A stretch of DNA of 32,000 nucleotides, taken from Geobacter metallireducens GS-15 (lineage in GTDB: Bacteria > Desulfobacterota > Desulfuromonadia > Geobacterales > Geobacteraceae). The translations under genes and the position numbers were made by a program. How positions within the stretch are numbered: position 1 is the first letter of the stretch; the number at the start of each line of letters is the position of its first letter. The stretch covers positions 2,580,001-2,612,000 of the forward strand of contig NC_007517.1 in the NCBI RefSeq assembly GCF_000012925.1, read 5' to 3'. Below the pieces are notes generated by a model, which worked only from the letters and a program-made list of their open reading frames with translations, had not been told where the DNA came from and did not search any database. Of the stretch, positions 1-10,060 are shown piece after piece.

Positions 1-72
1 GCCAGCCAATTCCCGAAAGGAAAGCAGCACAGCCATGGGCAATTTCTTAAGCGCAATTTGCGCTAAAAGGGG

Positions 73-1260
73 TTGTTTATGGCTATTTTCACATCAGAGA
101 ACAATCAAGTAGTGTCCCCCAGCATGGCGGAGTCTGTAACACGCCATGCGCAAAACCCACCTACCGGAAATTTCCAGTTCCTTGCCTGCGGCATTGATAC
201 CCTTGATCTGGGTCTGTTCGTGTCGTGGGACGCCAACTGGAACCGCACCAAGTCGTATCTTTCCGAGAAGAAGGAAGCCTCCCAGGGAACAACCGGCCTT
301 CTCGACAAGACCGACATCAGCCGGGAGTTTCTCCACCACGCAAGCGGCAAGGCTCCCAACTATCGCTATCAGCTCCAGTTCCCAGAATACCGCGTCTATC
401 TCGCCATTTCCGACAAGCCCGGCGCCTCGCCGAACGTCTATGTAACGATCCTGGCGGAAGCCCTCTGGCATGTGGGCCTATCAACCCTCCTGGAGCTGTT
501 GGAGTTCGACCTTATGAGCTTCGGCGGCACTATCGAGCGTGTCCAGCCGAGCCGGTGCGACCTCTGCGCAGACTTCAGAGTGAATCCGCCCCTCGCCTTT
601 TCCCTTCTCGAAATCCTCCGGGTGTCCCGCAGTCGCAAGATCAGAATGATAACGAACGGCGGCGACCTGGAAACCTACTATTGCGGCTCTGCTAACTCTC
701 CCGTCCAGGTGCGAATCTACGACAAGGGGAAAGAGATTCAGAAGAGCAACAAGCAATGGTTTCTGCCGATCTGGGGTGTGGATGATCCGGGAGGGGTCTG
801 GCGGGTCGAGTTCCAGCTTCGCCGCTCATTTCTCCATCAGTACCGGATAAAGACCCTTGACGACCTCTGGGAGAAGGTCGGCGCAATCTGGGCGTATCTC
901 ACAGGGGAATGGTTCTCGCTCCGGCTCCCCGACAACGAGAAGGCGGAACGGCGCACCATTCATCCCTGGTGGCTGGCGGTGCAGGAATGCCGGGACCGGT
1001 TCGGGGCCTTTCGGGATGCCAAGAGGACATTTTCCAGCGACAGCATGGAGCCGATTCAACGCACCCTTGCCCACATTATGGGAAGGATGATCTCCATTGC
1101 CGCCCAAAGCGGAATCAAGGACCGCAAGGAGGCGATCCGGTATCTGGGCCAGCTCCTTGACGAGCGCACCGATGATGACAAGTTCCGGGAGGAATACCGC
1201 AAGCGGTTAATCAGGCTCGGCTATCGCGGCACCCTGGGAGGGTCGGACGATGAGGAATGA
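73..1260 (+). CDS. Replication-initiation-factor-like protein (rolling-circle Rep_trans / phage gene II-like family)
   Basis: 395-aa ORF with motifs recalled from Rep_trans-type initiators: RCDLCADFRV (R-x-D-l-a-x-D-f), VQVRIYDKGKEIQ (YDK-x-x-E) and VWRVEFQLRR (R-v-E-l-q-l-R). The track start is TTG at 73; ATG at 79 is an alternative. Confidence 0.5.
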   Translation: MFMAIFTSENNQVVSPSMAESVTRHAQNPPTGNFQFLACGIDTLDLGLFVSWDANWNRTKSYLSEKKEASQGTTGLLDKTDISREFLHHASGKAPNYRYQLQFPEYRVYLAISDKPGASPNVYVTILAEALWHVGLSTLLELLEFDLMSFGGTIERVQPSRCDLCADFRVNPPLAFSLLEILRVSRSRKIRMITNGGDLETYYCGSANSPVQVRIYDKGKEIQKSNKQWFLPIWGVDDPGGVWRVEFQLRRSFLHQYRIKTLDDLWEKVGAIWAYLTGEWFSLRLPDNEKAERRTIHPWWLAVQECRDRFGAFRDAKRTFSSDSMEPIQRTLAHIMGRMISIAAQSGIKDRKEAIRYLGQLLDERTDDDKFREEYRKRLIRLGYRGTLGGSDDEE

Positions 1261-1591
1261 TAACCTTCCACCCTCCCCTGACCTTCTCACCGTGGAGCAG
1301 TTCGCCGAACGGATGCAGGTGTCCCGCACCACCATCTTTGGTTGGATCAAGGCGGGTGCCCTCAAGGAAAGGGTCCACTATATCCGACTCGGCCGCATCT
1401 TGCGCTTTCGCTGGGGGGTTGACCTTTTCTTCAACCGCCCGACACTGGCGAACAACGCGGAGGATGCCCCGGAAACGCCACCGCAGGCCACGGTCGGCAC
1501 GCTGGATTCTCAGCGGGGCGAAGCCCCGGTCAACCGCCCGCCTTTGACTTTAGAACGCCACAAGGGGCCGGTCATGAACCTTGACTATTGA
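1250..1591 (+). CDS. Excisionase-family / AlpA-like helix-turn-helix DNA-binding protein
   Basis: LLTVEQFAERMQVSRTTIFGWIKAGAL...RLGRILRFRW matches the HTH_17/excisionase pattern (HTH followed by an R-x-x-R-F/W wing). The ATG overlaps the 3' end of the Rep-like gene, and the gene sits directly upstream of an integrase. Confidence 0.65.
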   Translation: MRNDNLPPSPDLLTVEQFAERMQVSRTTIFGWIKAGALKERVHYIRLGRILRFRWGVDLFFNRPTLANNAEDAPETPPQATVGTLDSQRGEAPVNRPPLTLERHKGPVMNLDY

Positions 1592-1669
1592 TAATGCGAT
1601 GAAAGGCCGCTATGCTCCCCTCGGACTTAAGACGCACTGAAGGGAGGGTAACGGCCATGAGGTGACACA

Positions 1670-2980
1670 ATGAGAATGAAGAAAGGCATGCTTGCCTTGG
1701 AAGAACCAGTAAAGCAAATCGGAGCCATCAAGCGGCGCAAGGAGTCGAAGAAGCTCTACGTGGATTTCTACTACTTCGGGCGCAGGATAACGAGAAGCAC
1801 GGAACTGAACGACACCCCGGCCAATGAACGAAAGGTCCGGGCCTTTCTCGACAAGGTGATGCAGCGGATCGAGGACGGGACGTTCAAGTTTGCGGAGGCG
1901 TTCCTAGGAGCCACGGAGGAAGAGAAGGAGTTCTTCACCCAACTGGAAGGAAGGGAGTACCGGCCGGAACCACATCAGGTGGTTTTCGGAGAGTATGTGA
2001 AGGAGTGGATGGCGACGATCTTCCCCACCTTCGGCTCACCGACCAAGCGGCGGGACTATCGGGAGGCAATCGAAACGAGAATCCTTCCGGCCTTTCGGAA
2101 CATGACGTTCCACCAGATAACCGGGATGGCGGTATTCCGGTTCACGGAGTCGCTGGTCTGGAAAAAGGGCATCCACAAGGGAAAGCCCCTCTCCACGGCC
2201 AGGAAGAGCAACATCCTGATTCCGTTTCGCTCCATCTGGAACGATGCCTGCGACCATTACCGCTGGGTTATCAAGAGTCCCTTCGATAACCTGAGAAAGC
2301 GGCTTCCCAAGACCGAGAAGAAGGAACACACCGTTATCCGCTTCGCCGACTGGCTCACGTTCCTTGACAATCTGGAAGTGCATTACCGCCCCATCGCGGA
2401 ACTGATGATCCTTACCGGGATGATCCCTTCGGAGTTGGGGGGACTACGGAAGGACGATATCGAGGGGAATTACCTCAACGTCCGCAACTCCTACGTCCTC
2501 GGCGTGGAGAAGAAGAGCCTCAAGACCGCTTTCCGCAAGAGGCAAATCTCCATCACGGAAGCCATCAGGAAGCGGCTACAAGAACTTCAGAACCGCCCCG
2601 GCTCTCCTTACCTCTGCACGATGGTTGACGGCTCACGGTTCAACAGTAGCCGGTTCTGCAAGGTCTGGAAGAAGGCGGTGGATCAGGCCGGGATTCCCTA
2701 CGTTACCTCCTACTCGGCCCGGCACTCTTTCGCGGCGTGGAGTCTCATTATCGGGGTGAATCCGTTACGGCTCGTCAAGCTCATGGGGCATGCCAGCAAG
2801 CAAATGGTCTATGAGGTCTACGGGAACTACGTGGAGGGATTGGAAGAGGACGCGGAAAACATCTTCCGCTACTTCGGCAGGGACTTCATTATCCCCGGAA
2901 AAAGCAAATCCCCGATACCGTTTAGAGACAGTACCGGGGACAGTTTCGCGAACAACCTCTTAACTTTCGGAGATTGTTAG
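1670..2980 (+). CDS. Tyrosine recombinase / phage-type integrase of element A
   Basis: C-terminal catalytic signature ARHSFAAWSLIIGVNPLRLVKLMGHASKQMVYEVYGNY (R...H-x-x-R...H...Y). N-terminal arm-binding-like region LYVDFYYFGRRI. Adjacent to the tRNA-derived att repeat. Confidence 0.85.
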   Translation: MRMKKGMLALEEPVKQIGAIKRRKESKKLYVDFYYFGRRITRSTELNDTPANERKVRAFLDKVMQRIEDGTFKFAEAFLGATEEEKEFFTQLEGREYRPEPHQVVFGEYVKEWMATIFPTFGSPTKRRDYREAIETRILPAFRNMTFHQITGMAVFRFTESLVWKKGIHKGKPLSTARKSNILIPFRSIWNDACDHYRWVIKSPFDNLRKRLPKTEKKEHTVIRFADWLTFLDNLEVHYRPIAELMILTGMIPSELGGLRKDDIEGNYLNVRNSYVLGVEKKSLKTAFRKRQISITEAIRKRLQELQNRPGSPYLCTMVDGSRFNSSRFCKVWKKAVDQAGIPYVTSYSARHSFAAWSLIIGVNPLRLVKLMGHASKQMVYEVYGNYVEGLEEDAENIFRYFGRDFIIPGKSKSPIPFRDSTGDSFANNLLTFGDC

Positions 2981-2987
2981 ATTTTTT

Positions 2988-3034
2988 TGGAGCGGGAAAC
3001 GGGATTCGAACCCGCGACCTTCAGCTTGGGAAGC
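2988..3034 (-). repeat. 47-nt remnant of the tRNA-Gly(CCC) 3' end (att core repeat shared by elements A and B)
   Basis: tggagcgggaaacgggattCgaacccgcgaccttcagcttgggaagc matches 9986-10032 at 46 of 47 positions (C at 3007, T at 10005). Similarity stops abruptly at 3035, inside the anticodon stem. Confidence 0.9.
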
Positions 3035-3100
3035 AGGACACAAATCTTTCACGCCCCCACAACCCGCTCTATCACCATCTCGTTTATAGTCCATAACTTG

Positions 3101-3129
3101 TTGACTTATATCTGATTTTCCCATAGAGT
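3101..3129 (+). promoter_or_regulatory. Putative sigma70 promoter of the element-B integrase
   Basis: TTGACT (3101-3106), 17-nt spacer, TAGAGT (3124-3129), about 90 nt upstream of the int ATG. The putative arm-type repeats lie between this promoter and the start codon. Confidence 0.4.
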
Positions 3130-3175
3130 TATCCAAGCCAAGCCTCGCTTCATACGCTTTACTGCAAGCCCACTA

Positions 3176-3200
3176 GAGGTTGCTTGCAGGTTGCTTGTAG
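3176..3200 (+). repeat. Tandem GGTTGCTTG(C/T) motifs (putative integrase arm-type binding sites, left end of element B)
   Basis: gaGGTTGCTTGCaGGTTGCTTGTag. An almost identical 26-nt block occurs at 9904-9929 in the same orientation. Confidence 0.55.
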
Positions 3201-3216
3201 CACTCAGAGGGAAATC

Positions 3217-4461
3217 ATGTCAACGCAATTCTCAGACAAGTTCATTCAAAACCTGAAGCCTGAAGCCAAGAAGTATTACATCCGGGAGAGTCGAGGATTC
3301 GCCATAGTCGTCCACCCTTCCGGTATCAAGAACCCGAAAGGGACAAAGACTTTCCTTTACATCTACACCATCAACGGCAAGCGCAAGGAGTTGAAGCTAG
3401 GGAATTACCCAGAGGTAACGCTCAAGGATGCTCGCATCAAGCACGGCGAAGCCTATGCACGTTTGGTTAATGGAGAAGACCCAGTCACCCCTCCAGTCAT
3501 TAAAGCTGAGCCGCAAGACGAAAACCTCACCTTCGGTCACTTCACAGAGTTATACCTCCAATGGTCAAAAGATAATCATTCGCCCAAGTGGCACAACACT
3601 ATCAAGTGCGCCCTGAATAAAGATGCACTTCCTGTCTGGGAATATACACTCATAGCTTCCATCAAGCGTCGTGACGCTATAGCCTTTCTTGAAAACGTAG
3701 CAAGGCGGGGTATCCAAGTAATCAACTTACACAAGGCGACCAGCTCAGTCTTTGACTATGCTTTAGAGCGTGAATACATCGAATCAAACCCGATGGCAGG
3801 ATTAAAAGCAAAGACTATCCCGGCCCTTAAACCAAAAGCGAGAGAGCGCTTTCTCTCAGACAGTGAGATAAAACACGTCTGGAAGGCCATAGACGAGGGG
3901 CCGGGTTATGATGAAACCAAGCGTGCCTTGAAACTCATAATGGTAACAGCACAGCGACCGGGGGAGGTTGCAGCAATGCACAGGCGGGAGATTCAAACAG
4001 GCGTCGGTAAACCACGTTGCAAGATATGCAAGCGGTGCGGGTGGTGGACTATTCCGGCAGAAAGGATGAAGAACGGAGAGGAGCACAGGATATACCTTAC
4101 CCCTACAGCCCTCGAACTGATCGGAGATGCAGAGGGGTATATCTTTCCGTCACCACAGGACGGGCAACCTATAAACAGAAACTCCCTTTCCCAGCTTGTC
4201 AGTAGAGAGAGAAACAACAAGAAGCCCAATGGGGAGATGTACCCACCGTATTATGGATTGCCTGAGTGGACGCCTCACGATCTGAGACGCACGGCCCGGA
4301 CCCTTCTGGCTCGTGTTGGCGTACCGGAGGAGCACGCAGAGGAAGTGCTCAGTCACAAGAAAGAGGGCTTAGTGGACAGGTACAACCGCCATGACTACAT
4401 GGAGGAGAAGAAGGAGGCCTTGATTAAACTGGAAGCTGAGTTGATGAAATTGAGCATATAA
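3217..4461 (+). CDS. P4-type (DUF4102 N-terminus) tyrosine integrase of element B
   Basis: N-terminus FSDKFIQNLKPEAKKYYIRESRGFAIVVHPSG...LKLGNYPEVTLKDAR is the typical P4-like arm-binding domain. Catalytic residues: TAQRPGEV (R), HDLRRTART (H-x-x-R) and DRYNRHDY (Y). Start moved to ATG 3217 (GAGGG 6 nt upstream) from the TTG at 3184. Contains a Cys-rich insert, CKICKRCGWW. Confidence 0.9.
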   Translation: MSTQFSDKFIQNLKPEAKKYYIRESRGFAIVVHPSGIKNPKGTKTFLYIYTINGKRKELKLGNYPEVTLKDARIKHGEAYARLVNGEDPVTPPVIKAEPQDENLTFGHFTELYLQWSKDNHSPKWHNTIKCALNKDALPVWEYTLIASIKRRDAIAFLENVARRGIQVINLHKATSSVFDYALEREYIESNPMAGLKAKTIPALKPKARERFLSDSEIKHVWKAIDEGPGYDETKRALKLIMVTAQRPGEVAAMHRREIQTGVGKPRCKICKRCGWWTIPAERMKNGEEHRIYLTPTALELIGDAEGYIFPSPQDGQPINRNSLSQLVSRERNNKKPNGEMYPPYYGLPEWTPHDLRRTARTLLARVGVPEEHAEEVLSHKKEGLVDRYNRHDYMEEKKEALIKLEAELMKLSI

Positions 4462-4496
4462 GCAATGAAATTGCATTGAAAGTGAGGATGATGCCG

Positions 4497-4934
4497 ATGA
4501 GAGCTAAGTCGATATTGTTATTTATGGTGATTGCTTTGTATCCAACGTTTGTTGCAGCACTCGATAGTGAAGAAAAATATACTGGGTTTCATATTGACGT
4601 TTACGATGAGGCACTAACAAACAAAGTCATAGCTAATGCGGCTAAATGCGAAGTTATAGATCAATTACTTAACGGTGAAAGAAAGTCTTGTTATCTGTCA
4701 AACGCTATACATAAGATTATTAGTGAGCCTGACAACAAGTTAGTGAGGTATATGCCATTAAGAAATAATTACAATCGGTTGTTTATAGAATATGAAGTTG
4801 CCTATCACGCTTTAAGGAATGCACAATTCGGAGCACTTAAAACCATGAAAACGCTCAATGCTATTAGTGTGAGTGGCCTTCTTGAAATGTATTCTAAATC
4901 AAATTGCCCTGAGCTTAACAAATCACAGGATTGA
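4497..4934 (+). CDS. Small secreted hypothetical protein (AT-rich, foreign-looking gene)
   Basis: MRAKSILLFMVIALYPTFVAA|LDSEE looks like a Sec signal peptide. GAGGA lies 8 nt upstream of ATG 4497 (the track ORF starts at TTG 4476). Codon usage is clearly AT-biased compared with its neighbours. I recognise no domain. Confidence 0.6.
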   Translation: MRAKSILLFMVIALYPTFVAALDSEEKYTGFHIDVYDEALTNKVIANAAKCEVIDQLLNGERKSCYLSNAIHKIISEPDNKLVRYMPLRNNYNRLFIEYEVAYHALRNAQFGALKTMKTLNAISVSGLLEMYSKSNCPELNKSQD

Positions 4935-5067
4935 CAAATAACCCTGTCTCGTCTTCTGATGCTATATCCCCACCCCTTCATCTCCCGATGAAGACTGTAG
5001 CGTCCAGTACATACAGTAGCGATCTTATCGCTCTTCTAAAGGGCTGGTAATCGAAGTAATTCTTGGC

Positions 5068-5096
5068 TTGACAGGCCTGATTTGTAAGTGTATAAA
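5068..5096 (+). promoter_or_regulatory. Near-consensus sigma70 promoter of the serine recombinase gene
   Basis: TTGACA (5068-5073), 17-nt spacer, TATAAA (5091-5096). GGAGGG RBS at 5125-5130 and ATG at 5138. Confidence 0.55.
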
Positions 5097-5137
5097 TTCA
5101 TCAACGACCATATTGAAATTACACGGAGGGCCAGACA

Positions 5138-5788
5138 ATGAAACGCTACGTGTCCTATCTCAGGGTATCAACCGACAAGCAAGGCCGGGAGGGCTACGGA
5201 GTAGGTGCACAACGAGAGGCCGTAGCCAACTACCTGAACGGGGGCAAGTGGGAGTTACTACGGGAGTTCGTAGAGGTGGAATCAGGAAGGAAGAAGGACC
5301 GCCCGGAGCTGGCAGCGGCTCTTTCCTTCTGCAAGCTGACTAAGTCCACCTTGATCGTTGCCAAGCTGGACCGCCTAGCCCGCAACGTGGCGTTTGTATC
5401 TTCGCTCATGGAATCTGGGGTTGACTTCGTAGCGGTAGACTTCCCAGAAGCAAACAAGCTGACTGTCCATATCCTTGCAGCGGTTGCGGAACATGAGGCC
5501 GGTATGATTTCCACCCGCACCAAAGCAGCCTTAGCGGCAGCAAGGACAAGGGGCGTCAAGCTGGGGAATCCTAACCTAACCAATGAAGCCCGGAGCGCTG
5601 GCAGGGTTGCAAGGGCTATGAAGTCCGATGAAGATGCAAAGAGGGTAAAACCCATCATTGAAGGATTGAGACTGCAAGGCATGGGACTTAGAGAGACTGC
5701 AAGGGAACTGAACCGGCAAGGAATCCGAACGCCACTAGGAAAGGACTGGACCGCTACGGCAGTCAAGAACGCAATGGCGAGATGGTGA
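5138..5788 (+). CDS. Small serine recombinase (resolvase/invertase family)
   Basis: N-terminal catalytic motif YVSYLRVSTDKQ (nucleophilic Ser), KLDRLARN and ISTRTKAAL motifs, and a C-terminal HTH-like region (GLRETARELNRQGIRT). Confidence 0.9.
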   Translation: MKRYVSYLRVSTDKQGREGYGVGAQREAVANYLNGGKWELLREFVEVESGRKKDRPELAAALSFCKLTKSTLIVAKLDRLARNVAFVSSLMESGVDFVAVDFPEANKLTVHILAAVAEHEAGMISTRTKAALAAARTRGVKLGNPNLTNEARSAGRVARAMKSDEDAKRVKPIIEGLRLQGMGLRETARELNRQGIRTPLGKDWTATAVKNAMARW

Positions 5789-5886
5789 AGCTCTGAGGCG
5801 TCAAGGTTGACAGGTGGTTTCCCTTCTCCTTCCTGTCCCTGACAGGCCTAGCGCCTCGCCCGGCCCGCTCCCTGATCGCCACGGAG

Positions 5887-5903
5887 CCCCCCCCCCCCCC
5901 CCC
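5887..5903. repeat. Homopolymeric C17 tract (G17 on the minus strand)
   Basis: Counted directly: 17 consecutive C, followed by a-cccc-at-ggggg (palindrome ccccatgggg). Intergenic, about 100 nt after the recombinase stop. Confidence 0.95.
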
Positions 5904-6121
5904 ACCCCATGGGGGAAAGCGCACGACGAGGGCGAGGGCAGACCCCTTGCACGCACCGGCTGTAATTTCGAGAATCTGAGTGCAGCCGACTCAGCCCGTC
6001 AAGCTATTTGCCCGCCCGCTGGACCTCTTCCCGAATAACAACCCACGCCTAGCCCTCACCCGGAATAAAAGCTCGTCACAGGTCAAATATGGTAGCTGTA
6101 TCCGTTTACCTATATGGCAAA

Positions 6122-6151
6122 TTGAACTAGAGCACCGCTCCGTGCTATAAA
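6122..6151 (+). promoter_or_regulatory. Putative sigma70 promoter of the 3-TM/zinc-ribbon gene
   Basis: TTGAAC (6122-6127), 18-nt spacer, TATAAA (6146-6151). It overlaps the track's GTG start (6152), which argues for the ATG at 6179 preceded by AAGGA. Confidence 0.45.
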
Positions 6152-6178
6152 GTGGAGGCAAGCAGAAAGGACCCGAAG

Positions 6179-6736
6179 ATGACAGAGTCTCAATCCCATT
6201 CAGTTCGTAACGGAGTTATTGCAACTGTCTTAGGTGGACTTATCTTGTCTGCAATACCCTATGCACGTGGTTTACTACTAAGCCTCATCGCATGGGTTTG
6301 GTCTGGGGCTGTTTGGGCACGGAAAACCATCACCTTGTCATATCCGACACCGGGGTGGTTACTGCTACTCATAGGGCTGTTCGCACTTTATGGCGCAGTA
6401 TGCACCCTCTTTGCACTCCGGCCCAAGAAAGAACCCCTCCACAAGAAGTACACTGAAGATATTATTTACGGTGCAAAGTGGCGCTGGTCTTGGGTGGGAA
6501 GTAATGTTTCAAATCTTTGGTGCTATTGCCCGACGTGTGATGCAACTCTTGTTTATGATGACAGCTCTTGTCGCTCCCGGTATGAACCAAGCAAAACCGA
6601 CTTTATCTGTGAGCGGTGCAATGGAAAGGTTGTTACAACAATCCAAGGTGGAAACAAATCATACGCTGTCGGTGCTGCCGAAAGGGAACTTCTCCGCAAG
6701 GTGAGGACCGGGGAGTATGTCGCTGCTATCCAATGA
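6179..6736 (+). CDS. Membrane protein with about 3 N-terminal TM helices and a C-terminal CxxC...CxxC zinc-ribbon-like domain; function unknown
   Basis: Hydrophobic stretches VIATVLGGLILSAIPY, LLLSLIAWVWSGAVWA and GWLLLLIGLFALYGAVCTLFAL. Then CYCPTCDATLVYDD...DFICERCNG (two CxxC pairs). Confidence 0.65.
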   Translation: MTESQSHSVRNGVIATVLGGLILSAIPYARGLLLSLIAWVWSGAVWARKTITLSYPTPGWLLLLIGLFALYGAVCTLFALRPKKEPLHKKYTEDIIYGAKWRWSWVGSNVSNLWCYCPTCDATLVYDDSSCRSRYEPSKTDFICERCNGKVVTTIQGGNKSYAVGAAERELLRKVRTGEYVAAIQ

Positions 6737-6947
6737 CTGAAGAAAAGAGCCTCGCCCGCAATTCAAGCAATCGAAATTGGGACAAGGTGGCCGTAACACG
6801 GGAGCGGCCCAAGGGAGCACCGTAGATCACTGAGAGAGAACACAGACTGCTCGCACCTCGGCTACTGGCTCAACCTTGGGCAATCAAACGGGCTACTATG
6901 TAACCGGCCTCAGCCGGATAGATATAAATAACCGTATGTAAGACAAG

Positions 6948-7427
6948 TCAGTCTGATAAGTTGTACCAGTCAGGGAAGCGGTCACTCTTTATGCGCCACG
7001 CCACGGTGGATTGAGAGAGACCAGCAGCTTTTGCAGCTTCTCTTTGATGAGTGAAGACACCGATAGGCGTGCTAATCTTGGAGCCACGAGTAGGCTTTTT
7101 CGACCCGGTTGCATAAGCACGCTTCATACAGCGAGAGCGACAGCTCCACTCAAGATTGCTTGCGTTGTTGTTGCTACGATTCCCATCTTTGTGCCTTACA
7201 CAAGGAAGCTCGTCGGGATTGTCAATGAAGGCCTCAGCTACAACCCTATGCCACAAGAGCGCCTTGGGTTTCTTGCTCTCTCCAACGTACAAATTTGCAA
7301 TGCACCCTTTCTTTGAAACTGAAGGGCTCAATACGTGCCTTGTCTTTATCCGTCGAATATCCCCGTTATTTGAGACTTCGTACTCACGCGCCTCCCGTAC
7401 CACTTTCCATCGTTCGCTCTCGGTCAT
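6948..7427 (-). CDS. Free-standing HNH homing-type endonuclease (NUMOD4-like N-terminus, HNH core, C-terminal HTH)
   Basis: WKVV...YEVSNNGDIRRI (NUMOD4-like), CVRHKDGNRSNNNASNLEW (H-N-N core) and REAAKAAGLSQSTVAWRIK (HTH). A G9 run sits in the SD position upstream. Confidence 0.8.
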   Translation of the reverse strand: MTESERWKVVREAREYEVSNNGDIRRIKTRHVLSPSVSKKGCIANLYVGESKKPKALLWHRVVAEAFIDNPDELPCVRHKDGNRSNNNASNLEWSCRSRCMKRAYATGSKKPTRGSKISTPIGVFTHQREAAKAAGLSQSTVAWRIKSDRFPDWYNLSD

Positions 7428-7433
7428 ACCCAG

Positions 7434-7442
7434 CCCCCCCCC
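7434..7442. repeat. C9 tract (G9 on the coding strand), 6-15 nt upstream of the HNH start codon
   Basis: Counted directly. On the minus strand it reads gcGGGGGGGGGctgggtATG. Confidence 0.9.
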
Positions 7443-7534
7443 GCTCTTGTAGCACTCTAGCCCGTTTTTTATCTCTCTTATAATTCTTTACTCTTCGTCT
7501 ACTACTTAGCGCTCCGTCTTCGACGGTACTACTT

Positions 7535-7668
7535 GTTCGCTCAGAGGTTCCTGTATCTATAGGACGGGTTTATTTTACGATGAGAAATGAGAAATGAAAC
7601 CATCGGGACTCTGTCACGCATCGGAACGGCTGGTTCGCTCAGAGGTTCCTGTATCTATAGGACGGGTT
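7535..7668. repeat. Pair of identical 36-bp direct repeats separated by 62 bp
   Basis: gttcgctcagaggttcctgtatctataggacgggtt at 7535-7570 and 7633-7668. The spacer contains the tandem gagaaatgagaaatga. Confidence 0.9.
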
Positions 7669-7872
7669 AATTCATCTTAACGGAGAGCACTTGCACGCGC
7701 CGGTTGCAATCCCAAGGGTGAGAGCCCAACTCTCAGACCGTCCTTTTAACGCACCCCGCCGCCCACTGGCTCGCCCGCAACTTGTCACCCCTCACCTTAC
7801 CCTTCGCCAGCCCGTGCCCGCCCTCAGAAACGATAATAATTTGAAACCGCCGTGCGAGACCGGGAGTGCGCT

Positions 7873-7949
7873 ATATTATTAATAGTATGGGTTAATTGCT
7901 TGCCCGCACGCCATATTATTAATAGTATGGATTAATTGCTTGCCCGCAC
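7873..7949. repeat. Two tandem 37-bp repeats (40-bp period, 1 mismatch), each containing AATTGCTTGC
   Basis: atattattaatagtatggGttaattgcttgcccgcac at 7873-7909 and atattattaatagtatggAttaattgcttgcccgcac at 7913-7949. Confidence 0.9.
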
Positions 7950-8101
7950 TACAGATGCCCCTGAGTGCGTCAGATATTGCGCCAGAAAGGCTTCGAGTAC
8001 TCCGGGCAGGGCATACCATTGCCCGACACCGCCCAACCCGCCAGAGGGCTATATTTTTTAAGTTGTGCCGGTGCAATGAATTGAGAGTACGCAAAAGAAA
8101 A

Positions 8102-9427
8102 GGTTCTTCAGGGAATTCCGGGGAAGATTAATAAACAACAACGGCAGCACTGCGGTATCTTGATGGTTCCCCAACCAAAAAAGATCGCAGGAGGCTGCCG
8201 TTGTCGTATTCCGATGTTATCGCAATTGCGGGAGGGTGGGAAGGATATCGTGTTGCTGGGACACGCACTATCGTCACAGGTGATGCCAAACGGATCGAGG
8301 TAGAACTGATTGCCCTGTCCCAGGATGAGATGGTGTGTGGCTCGTGCGGCGGGCGTTGCACAAGCGTCCATGAAACGACCAAGCGCGTAATTCGAGATTT
8401 GCCGATTCTCGATGCTCAGACTTATCTGATCGTTCACCGCCGCAGGCTGCTGTGCCCTCAGTGTGGGCCAACGCTGGAGCGTCTGTCATGGCTGGCGAAA
8501 TACGCCCGCGTGACGCGCAGGCTTGCAGAGAGCGTAGCGCGACTGTGTGGTGTCGTGTCTGTGAAGCACGTGGCGCAGTATCTGGGGCTTTCTTGGGACC
8601 AGGTGAAGGAAATCGACAAGCGCTCACTCACAGAGCGGGTCGGCACCGTCGACCTCTCAAACATCGAAGTTCTCGGGATGGATGAGTTCGCCCTTCACAA
8701 GGGGCACCGCTATGCGACGGTTATCATCGAGCCATACCGTAAGGAAGTCTTATGGATCGGCAAAGGCAGGAGTCGCGAGAGTATCCGTCCTTTCTTCACG
8801 CAGCTTGGCCCACATGGCTGTAAACGGCTCAAAGCGGTCGTGATGGATATGAACGCATCATATGAGGAGGAAATCAAGCAGCACTCGCCCCAGGCAGACA
8901 TAGTCTACGACCTGTTCCATGTGGTGGCGAAGTATGGCAGGGAAGTGATCGACAGGGTGCGAGTCGATGAGGCAAACCGCCTGAAGGAAGACAAGAAGGC
9001 ACGGAAGGTAGTCAAAACATCGCGGTGGTTGCTGCTACGAAACAGCGAGAACGTCAAGGGCGACGACATGCTTCGCCTCCAGGAACTGTTGGAGGCAAAC
9101 CGCAGCCTCCTTACGGTCTACCTGCTCAAAGACGATCTGAAGCAACTGTGGAAGTTTACCTGCATTGAAGAGGCGGGACTATTCTGGGAGCAGTGGCACC
9201 AAAGGGCGATGGAGAGTGGAATACCGCCACTCATCCTGTTTGCCCGCCGGCTAAAGGGCTATCTCCAAGGAATCCTCAACCACTGCCTCTGGCCCCTTCA
9301 CACCGGAATCCTCGAAGGCATCAATAACAAGATCAAGGTGATCAAAAGAATGGCCTACGGCTTCCGGGATCACGAATACTTCTTTCTCAAGATCAGAGCC
9401 GCTTTCCCCGGAATTCCCGGATGAACC
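8102..9427 (+). mobile_element. ISL3-family insertion sequence (1326 bp) with imperfect terminal inverted repeats and an 8-bp target-site duplication
   Basis: IRL is GGTTCTTCAGGGAATTCCGGGGAA (from 8102). The reverse complement of IRR is GGTTCATCCGGGAATTCCGGGGAA (ending at 9427). It is flanked by identical AAAGAAAA at 8094-8101 and 9428-9435. It has a single transposase ORF. Confidence 0.9.
8201..9424 (+). CDS. ISL3-family DDE transposase
   Basis: N-terminal zinc finger CGSCGG...CPQCG (zf-ISL3 type), about 400 aa, stop codon inside the right IR. TTG start preceded by AGGAGG 6 nt upstream. Confidence 0.85.
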   Translation: MSYSDVIAIAGGWEGYRVAGTRTIVTGDAKRIEVELIALSQDEMVCGSCGGRCTSVHETTKRVIRDLPILDAQTYLIVHRRRLLCPQCGPTLERLSWLAKYARVTRRLAESVARLCGVVSVKHVAQYLGLSWDQVKEIDKRSLTERVGTVDLSNIEVLGMDEFALHKGHRYATVIIEPYRKEVLWIGKGRSRESIRPFFTQLGPHGCKRLKAVVMDMNASYEEEIKQHSPQADIVYDLFHVVAKYGREVIDRVRVDEANRLKEDKKARKVVKTSRWLLLRNSENVKGDDMLRLQELLEANRSLLTVYLLKDDLKQLWKFTCIEEAGLFWEQWHQRAMESGIPPLILFARRLKGYLQGILNHCLWPLHTGILEGINNKIKVIKRMAYGFRDHEYFFLKIRAAFPGIPG

Positions 9428-9460
9428 AAAGAAAAGCCCCGAACCATTGAAGGCCGGGGC
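9428..9460 (-). terminator. Rho-independent terminator of the small-ORF operon; its T-tract was the ISL3 target
   Basis: The minus strand reads GCCCCG-(13-nt loop)-CGGGGC followed by TTTTCTTT. The TTTTCTTT is the complement of the AAAGAAAA target duplication. Confidence 0.6.
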
Positions 9461-9492
9461 GTGATAGCCTGATTGCAGGTTACAGGTGGGAA

Positions 9493-9630
9493 CTAAGGTG
9501 CAAGGCGCTTCAGGCGTTCCAGCGCCTCCACGTTGATACCGATTTTAGCTTGTGCCTCCCTGAGCGTTATTGCCTTCCTGCTGTGAACGAGGGTCAGGTG
9601 CTTTCTTGTGATTGCGTTCTTGATCGTCAT
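9493..9630 (-). CDS. Hypothetical 45-aa protein, possibly a minimal HTH (regulator or excisionase candidate)
   Basis: ATG 9630 is preceded by GAGG. ITLREAQAKIGINVEALERLKRL resembles helix 2, turn and helix 3 of XRE-type HTHs. It is followed by a terminator. The call is weak because the ORF is very short. Confidence 0.35.
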   Translation of the reverse strand: MTIKNAITRKHLTLVHSRKAITLREAQAKIGINVEALERLKRLAP

Positions 9631-9637
9631 ACGCGCC

Positions 9638-9784
9638 TCAATCCGGGAGGGTGGCAGAGTATTCATCTTGAGCATTGAAGCACTCTTCCTGCCTGTCGCA
9701 AGCTAGGCACTTCCTGAAGGTCGCCATGTGCTGTTTCTCCCATGATTTGAAGTCGGTATTCATCTGGTCAATCTCTGCTTGCAT
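9638..9784 (-). CDS. Hypothetical 48-aa protein (contains CLAC...C)
   Basis: ATG 9784 is preceded by a strong GAGGAGG 5 nt upstream. Its stop lies 10 nt before the next small ORF. No recognisable domain. Confidence 0.4.
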   Translation of the reverse strand: MQAEIDQMNTDFKSWEKQHMATFRKCLACDRQEECFNAQDEYSATLPD

Positions 9785-9888
9785 CTTCTCCTCCTCATCG
9801 TTAAGGGCTATCGACAATCGGCGGACAGGAGCGAACCGGATGCAGGAGGGGCACGGGATAATCGAAAACAGACAGATGCAGACAGGCG

Positions 9889-9927
9889 GGTTGCTTGCCA
9901 ACGGAGGTTGCTTGCGGGGTTGCTTGT
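9889..9927 (+). repeat. Three GGTTGCTTG(C/T) motifs (putative integrase arm-type sites, right end of element B)
   Basis: GGTTGCTTGC at 9889-9898 and 9906-9915, GGTTGCTTGT at 9918-9927. They lie about 60-100 nt from the tRNA 3' end, in the same orientation as the copies at 3178-3198. Confidence 0.55.
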
Positions 9928-9985
9928 AGATTCTGGAAAGAGAAAAAGGGGCTGCCAAAAACTGGCTAACCCCTTGATTTCTTTA

Positions 9986-10060
<75 letters not shown>

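Follow-up and report, generated by a model that had tools for sequence, protein, structure and literature searches.

A mosaic tRNA-Gly mini-island of Geobacter metallireducens GS-15 and its mobile gene Gmet_2282, a candidate single-gene membrane immunity family

Element B is a small integrase-headed island of Geobacter metallireducens GS-15 that occupies positions 3035–9985 of the 32-kb stretch of chromosomal DNA analyzed here (contig NC_007517.1; hereafter the window). Comparison with related loci reveals that the genes of Element B are independent passengers rather than the components of one system. One of these genes, Gmet_2282, encodes a protein with three transmembrane helices (3-TM) and a zinc ribbon; it is a solitary, cassette-like mobile gene that is strongly conserved. 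The contexts in which its homologues occur mark Gmet_2282 as a credible single-gene anti-phage candidate. Drawing on these contexts, we propose, with confidence that is about evenly divided, that Element B is a mosaic mini-island in which Gmet_2282 acts as a single-polypeptide membrane immunity protein.

Element B and its sister islands

The features that a first-pass annotation of the window had listed for Element B are all present where it placed them. As it had claimed, the island is bounded by attachment (att) repeats (51 nucleotides (nt) each at 2984–3034 and 9982–10032, 96% identical). The features central to this study are listed below; L069 is a sister contig described later in this section.

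5931–6072: segment 'b', 142 bp of conserved non-coding backbone between two cargo insertion points; 82.6% identical to L069 3338–3481
6088–6752 (+): ~0.66-kb insertion relative to L069, comprising Gmet_2282 and the promoter-like site at 6122–6151
6179–6736 (+): open reading frame (ORF) 100% identical to Gmet_2282, the 3-TM/zinc-ribbon protein of 185 amino acids (aa)
6791–6806 (+): left copy of the hairpin motif CCGT-N3-5-ACGG-(G)AGCG
6948–7427 (−): free-standing I-HmuI-like HNH protein Gmet_2283, convergent with Gmet_2282; NUMOD4, HNH_3 and I-TevI_DNA-bd domains
7428–8101: non-coding block of 674 bp with 51-nt direct repeats (7524–7574 and 7622–7672) and tandem 40-mers (7869–7948)
7510–7526 (−): right copy of the hairpin motif, inverted

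The cargo of Element B had been described as matching no named system, and this description held: searches against PADLOC-DB v2.0 returned only a generic 'HEase' assignment and non-significant matches. The further claim that the cargo is entirely unassigned did not, inasmuch as the HNH protein (homologues in 908 phage genomes) and the serine recombinase Gmet_2281 (7596 Pin-like relatives below 1e-40) belong to large, well-annotated families.

The first-pass annotation had also raised the idea that the 3-TM protein, the HNH protein and the repeat block form one abortive-infection (Abi)-type module whose genes would be found together elsewhere. We assembled 68 loci that contain a 3-TM homologue, of which species-dereplicated genomes contributed 52, and searched these loci with every Element B protein. 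Homologues of the HNH protein, of the secreted ORF Gmet_2280 and of two tiny ORFs at the right end of the island were found in 0 of the 68 loci and in none of those added later (~75 in total); a related recombinase appeared once and related integrases in a few loci. The gene set as a whole was not found elsewhere. Because the 3-TM and HNH genes never co-occur and the HNH gene is found with other cargo, the one-module proposal is not supported.

A two-gene Abi-type defense system built from the 3-TM protein, the HNH protein and the repeat block would find some encouragement in the adjacent, convergent arrangement of the two genes in the window. It would also find some in a distant islet, L086. 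Here a 144-aa NUMOD4-motif protein is encoded at 2166–2600 (−), between the genes for a P4-type integrase and AlpA, and a Gmet_2282 homologue of 66% identity lies two genes away. However, an HNH domain is missing from the L086 protein, and BLAST detects no similarity between it and the window HNH protein. Moreover, the HNH gene and repeat block occur without the 3-TM gene, accompanied instead by a Hachiman system, a restriction-modification (R-M) system or a 138-aa ORF. The 3-TM gene, for its part, stands out against L069 as a separate insertion of 0.66 kb, and at other loci it forms an integron cassette by itself. We regard the two-gene system as highly improbable. A 152-aa ORF located 3' of the L013 integrase was also considered as a relative of the window's 152-aa ORF and proved to be unrelated.

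Sister contigs of Element B were recovered by searching from the HNH protein and the recombinase and were compared at the DNA and protein levels. Scanning GTDB genomes with the integrase uncovered no relatives, and an HNH-based scan of JGI metagenomes yielded two fragments only; apart from GS-15, the island family was found only in metagenome assemblies. In L082, the same att fragment as in the window adjoins the same integrase (89% aa identity), and the arm repeats and the HNH protein (76%) are likewise retained. The cargo between integrase and HNH gene consists of one 138-aa ORF in L082, at the position where the window holds the secreted ORF, the recombinase and the 3-TM gene. The check for cargo variation among elements with the same integrase, which the first-pass annotation had proposed, therefore gave a positive answer.

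Other sister contigs combine the HNH gene or the recombinase with other integrases. L069 and L070 share with the window 1.38 kb (6739–8102; 91.5% nt identity) that spans the HNH gene and the whole non-coding block, as well as the recombinase region (97% nt identity), but the integrase gene is on the opposite side, and its product shows just 36% identity. In L069, a 2.6-kb type II R-M system (MTase_II 3.5e-70, REase_II 2.8e-65) is inserted on one side of segment 'b'; the 3-TM gene of the window lies on the other side, where L069 has 47 bp in place of the 0.66-kb insertion. L071 has a third integrase (39%) and an HNH protein that is 71% identical, and a complete Hachiman system (HamA 3.9e-105, HamB 2e-285) takes the place of the part of the block equivalent to window 7673–7945. 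L075–L077 encode the recombinase (87%) together with a further type of integrase and different small ORFs. None of the four cargo breakpoints is more than ~1 kb from the HNH cassette. The parts shared by the family are the integrase with its att arms, the HNH cassette with its flanking non-coding DNA and, in some members, the Pin-like recombinase. The systems in the variable slots of the sister islands (Hachiman in L071, type II R-M in L069/L070) are bona fide defense systems, which agrees with the earlier placement of Element B among integrase-headed islets of the defense-carrying kind.

The Gmet_2282 family and its genomic contexts

Gmet_2282 contains hydrophobic zones at residues 12–47 and 56–82 and four cysteines arranged as C117xxC120...C144xxC147. 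The two hydrophobic zones are followed by a linker of charge +3, which suggests by the positive-inside rule that the C-terminal domain is cytoplasmic. The family comprises 318 homologues, typically 183–195 aa in length and at least 45–50% identical over their full length across distant phyla (Pseudomonadota, Campylobacterota, Nitrospirota, Latescibacterota, Acidobacteriota and Kiritimatiellota). The ratio of nonsynonymous to synonymous substitution (dN/dS) of 0.175 indicates purifying selection. Conservation peaks in the cytoplasmic part of the protein, where the motifs YxEDxxYGAKWRWxW, WCxCPxCDAxLVY, TxFxCExC and GGxxxYA and a basic helix (REIxRRIRT) are found. One family member, P0010 of the L010 type (224 aa), is longer at its C terminus by ~40 aa, a stretch with resemblance to an RRM fragment; this extension may reflect a fusion or an assembly artefact.

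A domain-only AlphaFold model of the C-terminal domain of Gmet_2282 was confident (pLDDT 87.8, pTM 0.74). Foldseek searches of PDB and BFVD with the full-length and C-terminal models returned nothing at E below 0.2; the PH/PTB-like and RPA12 zinc-ribbon matches among the results were non-significant and were set aside. Searches of PDB sequences with a Gmet_2282 profile gave no match, nor did the protein match any entry of Pfam, PADLOC, PHROG or NCBIfam. The homologues are all named 'hypothetical protein' at NCBI, and a literature search found no paper naming Gmet_2282 or its family. The first-pass annotation had assigned promoters to the recombinase and 3-TM genes. A simple scan reported none, while reading by eye gave plausible promoter-like sequences 5' of both genes: TTGACA-17-TATAAA at 5068–5096 for Gmet_2281 and TTGAAC-18-TATAAA at 6122–6151 for Gmet_2282.

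The closest relatives of Gmet_2282 (66–70% identity) reside in other islets with a P4-type integrase and AlpA. In integron-like arrays (L007 and related loci), the homologue is bounded by attC-type sites that lie 637 bp apart (TAACAA...GCGTTAG, identified by inspection), and the gene in these loci is an integron cassette. In a P4-like satellite of Serratia sp. JSRIV001 (L009), in which the satellite hallmarks are present, the homologue lies directly 3' of the integrase gene. This position is the int-psu hotspot, which was described as a defense hotspot of P4-like satellites by Rousset et al. 2022 (PMC9122126). A candidate system, the gene pair DUF2326 (PADLOC PDC-M68B) and MC6, occupies 8703–11437 of L009 in the same integrase-proximal hotspot, beside the homologue. 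Eight loci contain a homologue inside or beside a type I R-M operon, as in the order hsdM–3-TM–hsdS of L041. Another homologue lies beside a type III R-M system, and an Aliarcobacter plasmid carries one next to DUF262 and DUF2971 genes. Among the 148 immediate neighbors from 39 species, which represent 112 Pfam families, type I R-M domains are the commonest; no fixed or recurrent partner of Gmet_2282 was found among them.

These contexts invite comparison with two groups of mobile defense genes. Bacteriophage-resistance integron cassettes (BRiCs) are single-gene, often membrane-spanning defense cassettes (bioRxiv 10.1101/2024.07.02.601686, 10.1101/2024.07.02.601719). The Gmet_2282 family resembles them as a single-gene transmembrane (TM) unit of ~0.6 kb that is bounded by attC sites in marine gammaproteobacterial arrays. 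It differs in that alignment of the window with L069 revealed no attC-like site flanking Gmet_2282 in GS-15. A sequence link between Gmet_2282 and the named BRiCs was not established, and a zinc-ribbon protein is not mentioned in the text of the two BRiC papers. The second group consists of accessory defense genes of type I R-M operons, for example PrrC/RloC-type passengers. Gmet_2282 homologues are like them in their location in or near hsdM, hsdS and hsdR in the eight type I loci, alongside DUF3800 and Schlafen/AlbA_2 genes. Unlike these passengers, Gmet_2282 is membrane-anchored and has no recognizable nuclease, ATPase or other enzymatic domain.

The HNH cassette and the other parts of Element B

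Gmet_2283 combines a NUMOD4 domain, an HNH_3 catalytic core and a C-terminal helix-turn-helix (HTH) DNA-binding domain, which places it in the I-HmuI type, and its H...N...N motif is intact (HKDGNRSNNNASNLEW). Relatives of I-HmuI are site-specific nickases, and Gmet_2283 is probably a nicking endonuclease. The protein matched the PADLOC model 'HEase' (5.5e-18), phrog_59 and, as its nearest solved structure, I-HmuI (PDB 1U3E, 6.9e-10). Its dN/dS of 0.2–0.38 is relaxed relative to the values for the integrase (0.087, compared with L082), the recombinase (0.07) and Gmet_2282. By these sequence features Gmet_2283 appears to be an ordinary free-standing I-HmuI-like homing endonuclease, and the mosaic spread of the HNH gene among islets with different integrases seems consistent with homing. 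Gmet_2283 shares with I-HmuI and the phage NUMOD4-HNH proteins its domain architecture, including the I-TevI-type DNA-binding region. In contrast to those proteins, it is encoded in a chromosomal integrase islet rather than in a phage intron or intergenic region and is flanked by an inverted hairpin motif.

The hairpin motif has only two matches in the window, compared with 0.02 expected by chance. The inverted motif brackets the HNH gene in every member of the island family (L069, 2515/3227; L071, 7244, 7316/7970; L072–L074; L082, 609). The two copies might serve as nick sites, mark the ends of the cassette or act as sites for a regulator. A search of IMG/VR with the 16-nt motif returned seven contigs, all of them chance matches without other homology.

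The non-coding block is 91.7% identical in L069 and partly retained in L071. Each of its tandem 40-mers contains a 20-bp near-palindrome (CCATATTATTAATAGTATGG), and these candidate recombinase-target palindromes sit at a cargo breakpoint; paired sites on either side of a segment were not identified. Replacement of the tandem-40-mer part of the block by Hachiman in L071 points to a possible recombination site, for example for the serine recombinase. Searches of Rfam at gathering and permissive thresholds gave no match in the block. The segment 7428–7700 folds, on both strands, less stably than shuffled controls (z = +1.65 and +1.83), and a structured RNA was rejected on this basis. The block may act in cis during replication, transfer or packaging.

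Such a role is central to an alternative that is compatible with our preferred explanation. Element B may be a minimalist phage satellite or mobilizable island in which the HNH cassette and block supply cis and trans functions (nick site, origin or packaging signal) for exploitation of a helper, the remaining genes being accessory. The HNH gene and its flanks are the sole parts common to islets with three different integrases (36–39% identical), the conserved hairpin motif brackets the HNH gene, and the I-HmuI relatives of Gmet_2283 are nickases, all of which would fit this alternative. The 245 bp upstream of the HNH gene are, in addition, more conserved relative to L071 than synonymous sites (18.6% divergence vs a synonymous divergence, pS, of 28.8%). 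On the other hand, the relaxed dN/dS of the HNH gene is that of a selfish homing endonuclease, the block evolves at a neutral rate relative to L069, and BLASTN comparison of the block with phages and plasmids gave no match.

Comparison with P4 satellites also bears on this alternative. The defense hotspot of P4 satellites abuts the cos site (PMC9122126), which would suit a satellite origin. Element B resembles these satellites in having a P4-type integrase beside a slot of varying content that includes known defense systems. However, Pfam and PHROG searches of Element B did not find the hallmark genes (alpha primase/helicase or other primase/rep genes, psu, sid, delta/ogr, AlpA, capsid and terS), and by these markers Element B is not classed as a P4 satellite. 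Element B further differs in lacking cos, in having the HNH cassette as its core, in its Geobacter host and in having several insertion points rather than one. We consider the satellite alternative unlikely.

The remaining features of Element B and its boundaries are as follows.

2984–3034 (−): distal att repeat or pseudo-tRNA, a copy of the 3' 47 nt of the tRNA-Gly gene plus 4 nt
3178–3197 (+): two GGTTGCTTG arm-type repeats immediately 5' of the integrase gene, also kept in L082
3217–4461 (+): P4-type tyrosine integrase Gmet_2279, 414 aa; Arm-DNA-bind_3 (4.5e-16), Phage_integrase (5.6e-15) and Phage_int_M; phrog_1 (2.5e-62)
4497–4934 (+): AT-rich orphan ORF Gmet_2280 with a signal-peptide-like N terminus
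5138–5788 (+): small Pin/resolvase-type serine recombinase Gmet_2281; Resolvase (4.3e-28); phrog_125 DNA invertase (4e-35)
8102–9427 (+): ISL3-family insertion sequence, Gmet_2284; DDE_Tnp_ISL3 (2e-69); 24-nt inverted repeats
9436–9460 (−): terminator-like hairpin of the tiny-ORF operon, read from the sequence; a simple scan did not report it
9493–9784 (−): two overlapping tiny ORFs (60 aa and 48 aa)
9889–9926 (+): three GGTTGCTTG arm-type repeats at the tRNA-proximal end
9982–10032: proximal att repeat, a 51-nt direct repeat of 2984–3034
9986–10060 (−): intact tRNA-Gly(CCC), the integration target (ARAGORN; Rfam, 74.6 bits)

Element B is flanked by the 51-nt tRNA-Gly(CCC) repeat pair and spans 6.95 kb, or 5.6 kb prior to insertion of the ISL3 element. 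The GGTTGCTTG repeat occurs five times in the window, always within ~150 bp of an end of Element B, compared with 0.21 copies expected. This confinement to both ends is the pattern expected for arm-type integrase sites, and we designate the repeats putative arm-type binding sites in both arms. The integrase domains, the duplication of the tRNA 3' end as a direct repeat alongside an intact tRNA gene and the repeats in both arms together identify Element B as a P4-type integrase island. Butler et al. 2007 (PMC1924859) mentioned in passing the tRNA-Gly, a pseudo-tRNA 6.6 kb upstream and the integrases Gmet_2278 and Gmet_2279; they placed this site at the end of a 300-kb aromatics island and did not analyze it.

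Gmet_2281 consists of an N-terminal Resolvase domain with the active-site serine (YLRVSTDKQ) and a C-terminal HTH, as in other members of the serine recombinase family; it is 98.6% identical in L069 and 87% identical in L075–81. A 15-nt inverted repeat (6180–6194/7602–7616) was considered as an invertase site and dismissed as chance, since it is one of 16 similar pairs. Just 3' of the recombinase gene is a C-rich tract (5887–5908; 22 nt, 90% C) within a segment (5859–5984) that recurs with 70–74% identity elsewhere in L069 (8332–8425) and L071 (6809–6930).

Gmet_2280 has a GC content of 35.6%, compared with 60% in the flanking chromosome. It matched nothing in Pfam, PADLOC, PHROG, NCBIfam or PDB and was not found in any sister element. 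Only four relatives were identified among 1.84 billion representatives, and the sole closer relative lies on uninformative 2-kb contigs. The two tiny ORFs, which possibly encode a regulator or excisionase, likewise had no match in these five databases and no homologue in the sister loci. The segment 9428–9477 is conserved in L069 and L071, directly 3' of their integrase operons. The ISL3 element, inserted in the U-tract of the terminator-like hairpin 3' of the tiny-ORF operon, is flanked by a perfect 8-bp target duplication (AAAGAAAA) at 8094–8101 and 9428–9435. Because of this duplication and the uninterrupted empty site in L069 and L071, the element is a recent secondary insertion. The copy is identical to Gmet_2166 according to Butler et al. 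2007 (PMC1924859).

A second element, designated A, occupies window positions 1–2980 and adjoins the distal att repeat; its left end lies outside the window. Elements A and B look like islands integrated in tandem at tRNA-Gly. Element A encodes the following proteins.

73–1260: weak Rep_trans-like protein
1250–1591: excisionase-like HTH protein
1670–2980: tyrosine integrase different from that of Element B (Arm-DNA-bind_2)

A model for Element B and its implications

We propose a model in which Element B is an apparently intact, tRNA-Gly-integrated mini-island of a mosaic P4-type-integrase family. Genes are exchanged at several points, each no more than ~1 kb from the HNH cassette, and one slot in GS-15 holds Gmet_2282, a stand-alone mobile gene rather than a partner of the HNH gene. 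The cytoplasmic domain of Gmet_2282, a tryptophan-rich beta/zinc-ribbon domain with a basic C-terminal helix, would sense a component of the phage or nucleic acid that enters the cell, whereupon the 3-TM segment would collapse membrane integrity, leading to abortive infection, or block entry of DNA. The HNH protein would be a selfish free-standing homing nickase that marks, and may cause, a recombination hotspot. The recombinase probably resolves or rearranges Element B, and the secreted ORF Gmet_2280 would be an orphan passenger.

Gmet_2282 is like RexB, PycTM and other CBASS TM effectors and Imm/Sie-type proteins in that it is short, has several TM helices and occurs in defense-type contexts; the likeness lies in the proposed mode of action. 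It differs in having no sequence or fold similarity to these proteins (E = 0.052 only for PycTM; no Foldseek match). Unlike known membrane Abi and exclusion proteins, Gmet_2282 would join sensor and effector in one chain without a signaling partner. We judge the chances that Gmet_2282 is such a one-protein immunity device to be roughly balanced.

Several observations weigh against this model. The defense reading of Gmet_2282 draws on genomic context, and adjacency to R-M genes is found in only ~15–20% of species-level loci. Nine Arcobacteraceae loci (L037, L048, L051, L053–L055, L057, L063 and L068) share a neighborhood with a housekeeping appearance that includes recQ, a D-Ala-D-Ala-ligase-like gene, TauE, arginine decarboxylase and a UvrA paralogue. 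This conserved neighborhood suggests a stable cellular role for the homologue in that lineage; the Arcobacteraceae homologues look vertically inherited, unlike those in mobile contexts elsewhere. The Gmet_2282 family is absent from 50,697 phage genomes and was found in only two IMG/VR loci, which argues that prophage-borne exclusion is not the niche of Gmet_2282. With respect to the island, neither excisionase nor replication genes were recognized in Element B by searches of Pfam, PHROG, NCBIfam and PDB, and the sister elements are short, unannotated metagenome contigs without known taxonomy. Finally, the non-coding block diverges from L069 at approximately the synonymous rate (8.3% vs pS 7.7%), so that much of the block may lack constraint.

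A rival explanation holds that Gmet_2282 is not an anti-phage protein and that the island consists of passive selfish passengers. Gmet_2282 would instead function in addiction or stabilization, in exclusion of plasmids or transforming DNA, or in a membrane-anchored role in DNA metabolism or stress. The conserved Arcobacteraceae synteny with recQ and uvrA-like genes is consistent with this explanation, as are the frequent toxin-antitoxin-like neighbors of the gene (BrnT/CopG, RES/DUF433 and DUF4160/DUF2442). So too are the lack of homology to known defense proteins and the many non-defense genes that integron cassettes and islands also carry. However, Gmet_2282 recurs in slots of validated defense systems, namely the P4 int-psu hotspot, type I R-M operons and the Hachiman and R-M slots of the sister islands, and it has no partner able to serve as an antitoxin. 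We view a role other than anti-phage immunity as somewhat unlikely, with a real share of the probability.

A more far-reaching proposal joins the two subjects of this study. Gmet_2282 would found a group of fold-novel, one-protein membrane immunity sensors that move as ~0.65-kb cassettes between integrons, R-M operons, satellites and mini-islands, and the HNH nickase with its inverted hairpin sites would be the engine of a new class of minimalist islands. In islets otherwise devoid of mobility genes, nicking at the flanking sites would drive cargo exchange, or else replication or transfer. That both parts hold together is, in our estimation, a long shot.

If Gmet_2282 does not function in defense, the analysis still clears away a spurious multi-gene 'system' and reveals an island of ordinary mosaic make-up. 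The interest that is left lies in one orphan gene family with unusually consistent defense-type contexts and in a family of small islands centered on an HNH cassette. The sister comparison defines a family of integrase islets, ~5 kb in size and not reported before, in Geobacter-like bacteria. The variable slots of these islets cluster at a homing-endonuclease cassette, and the family bears on how defense genes are shuffled. If Gmet_2282 is an immunity gene, it would represent a very compact defense family (one gene, 185 aa) for which no relative in sequence or structure was found, and it would provide a handy model for how one membrane protein senses infection and acts on it. Members of this family occur in six or more phyla and on four kinds of platform that shuttle genes.

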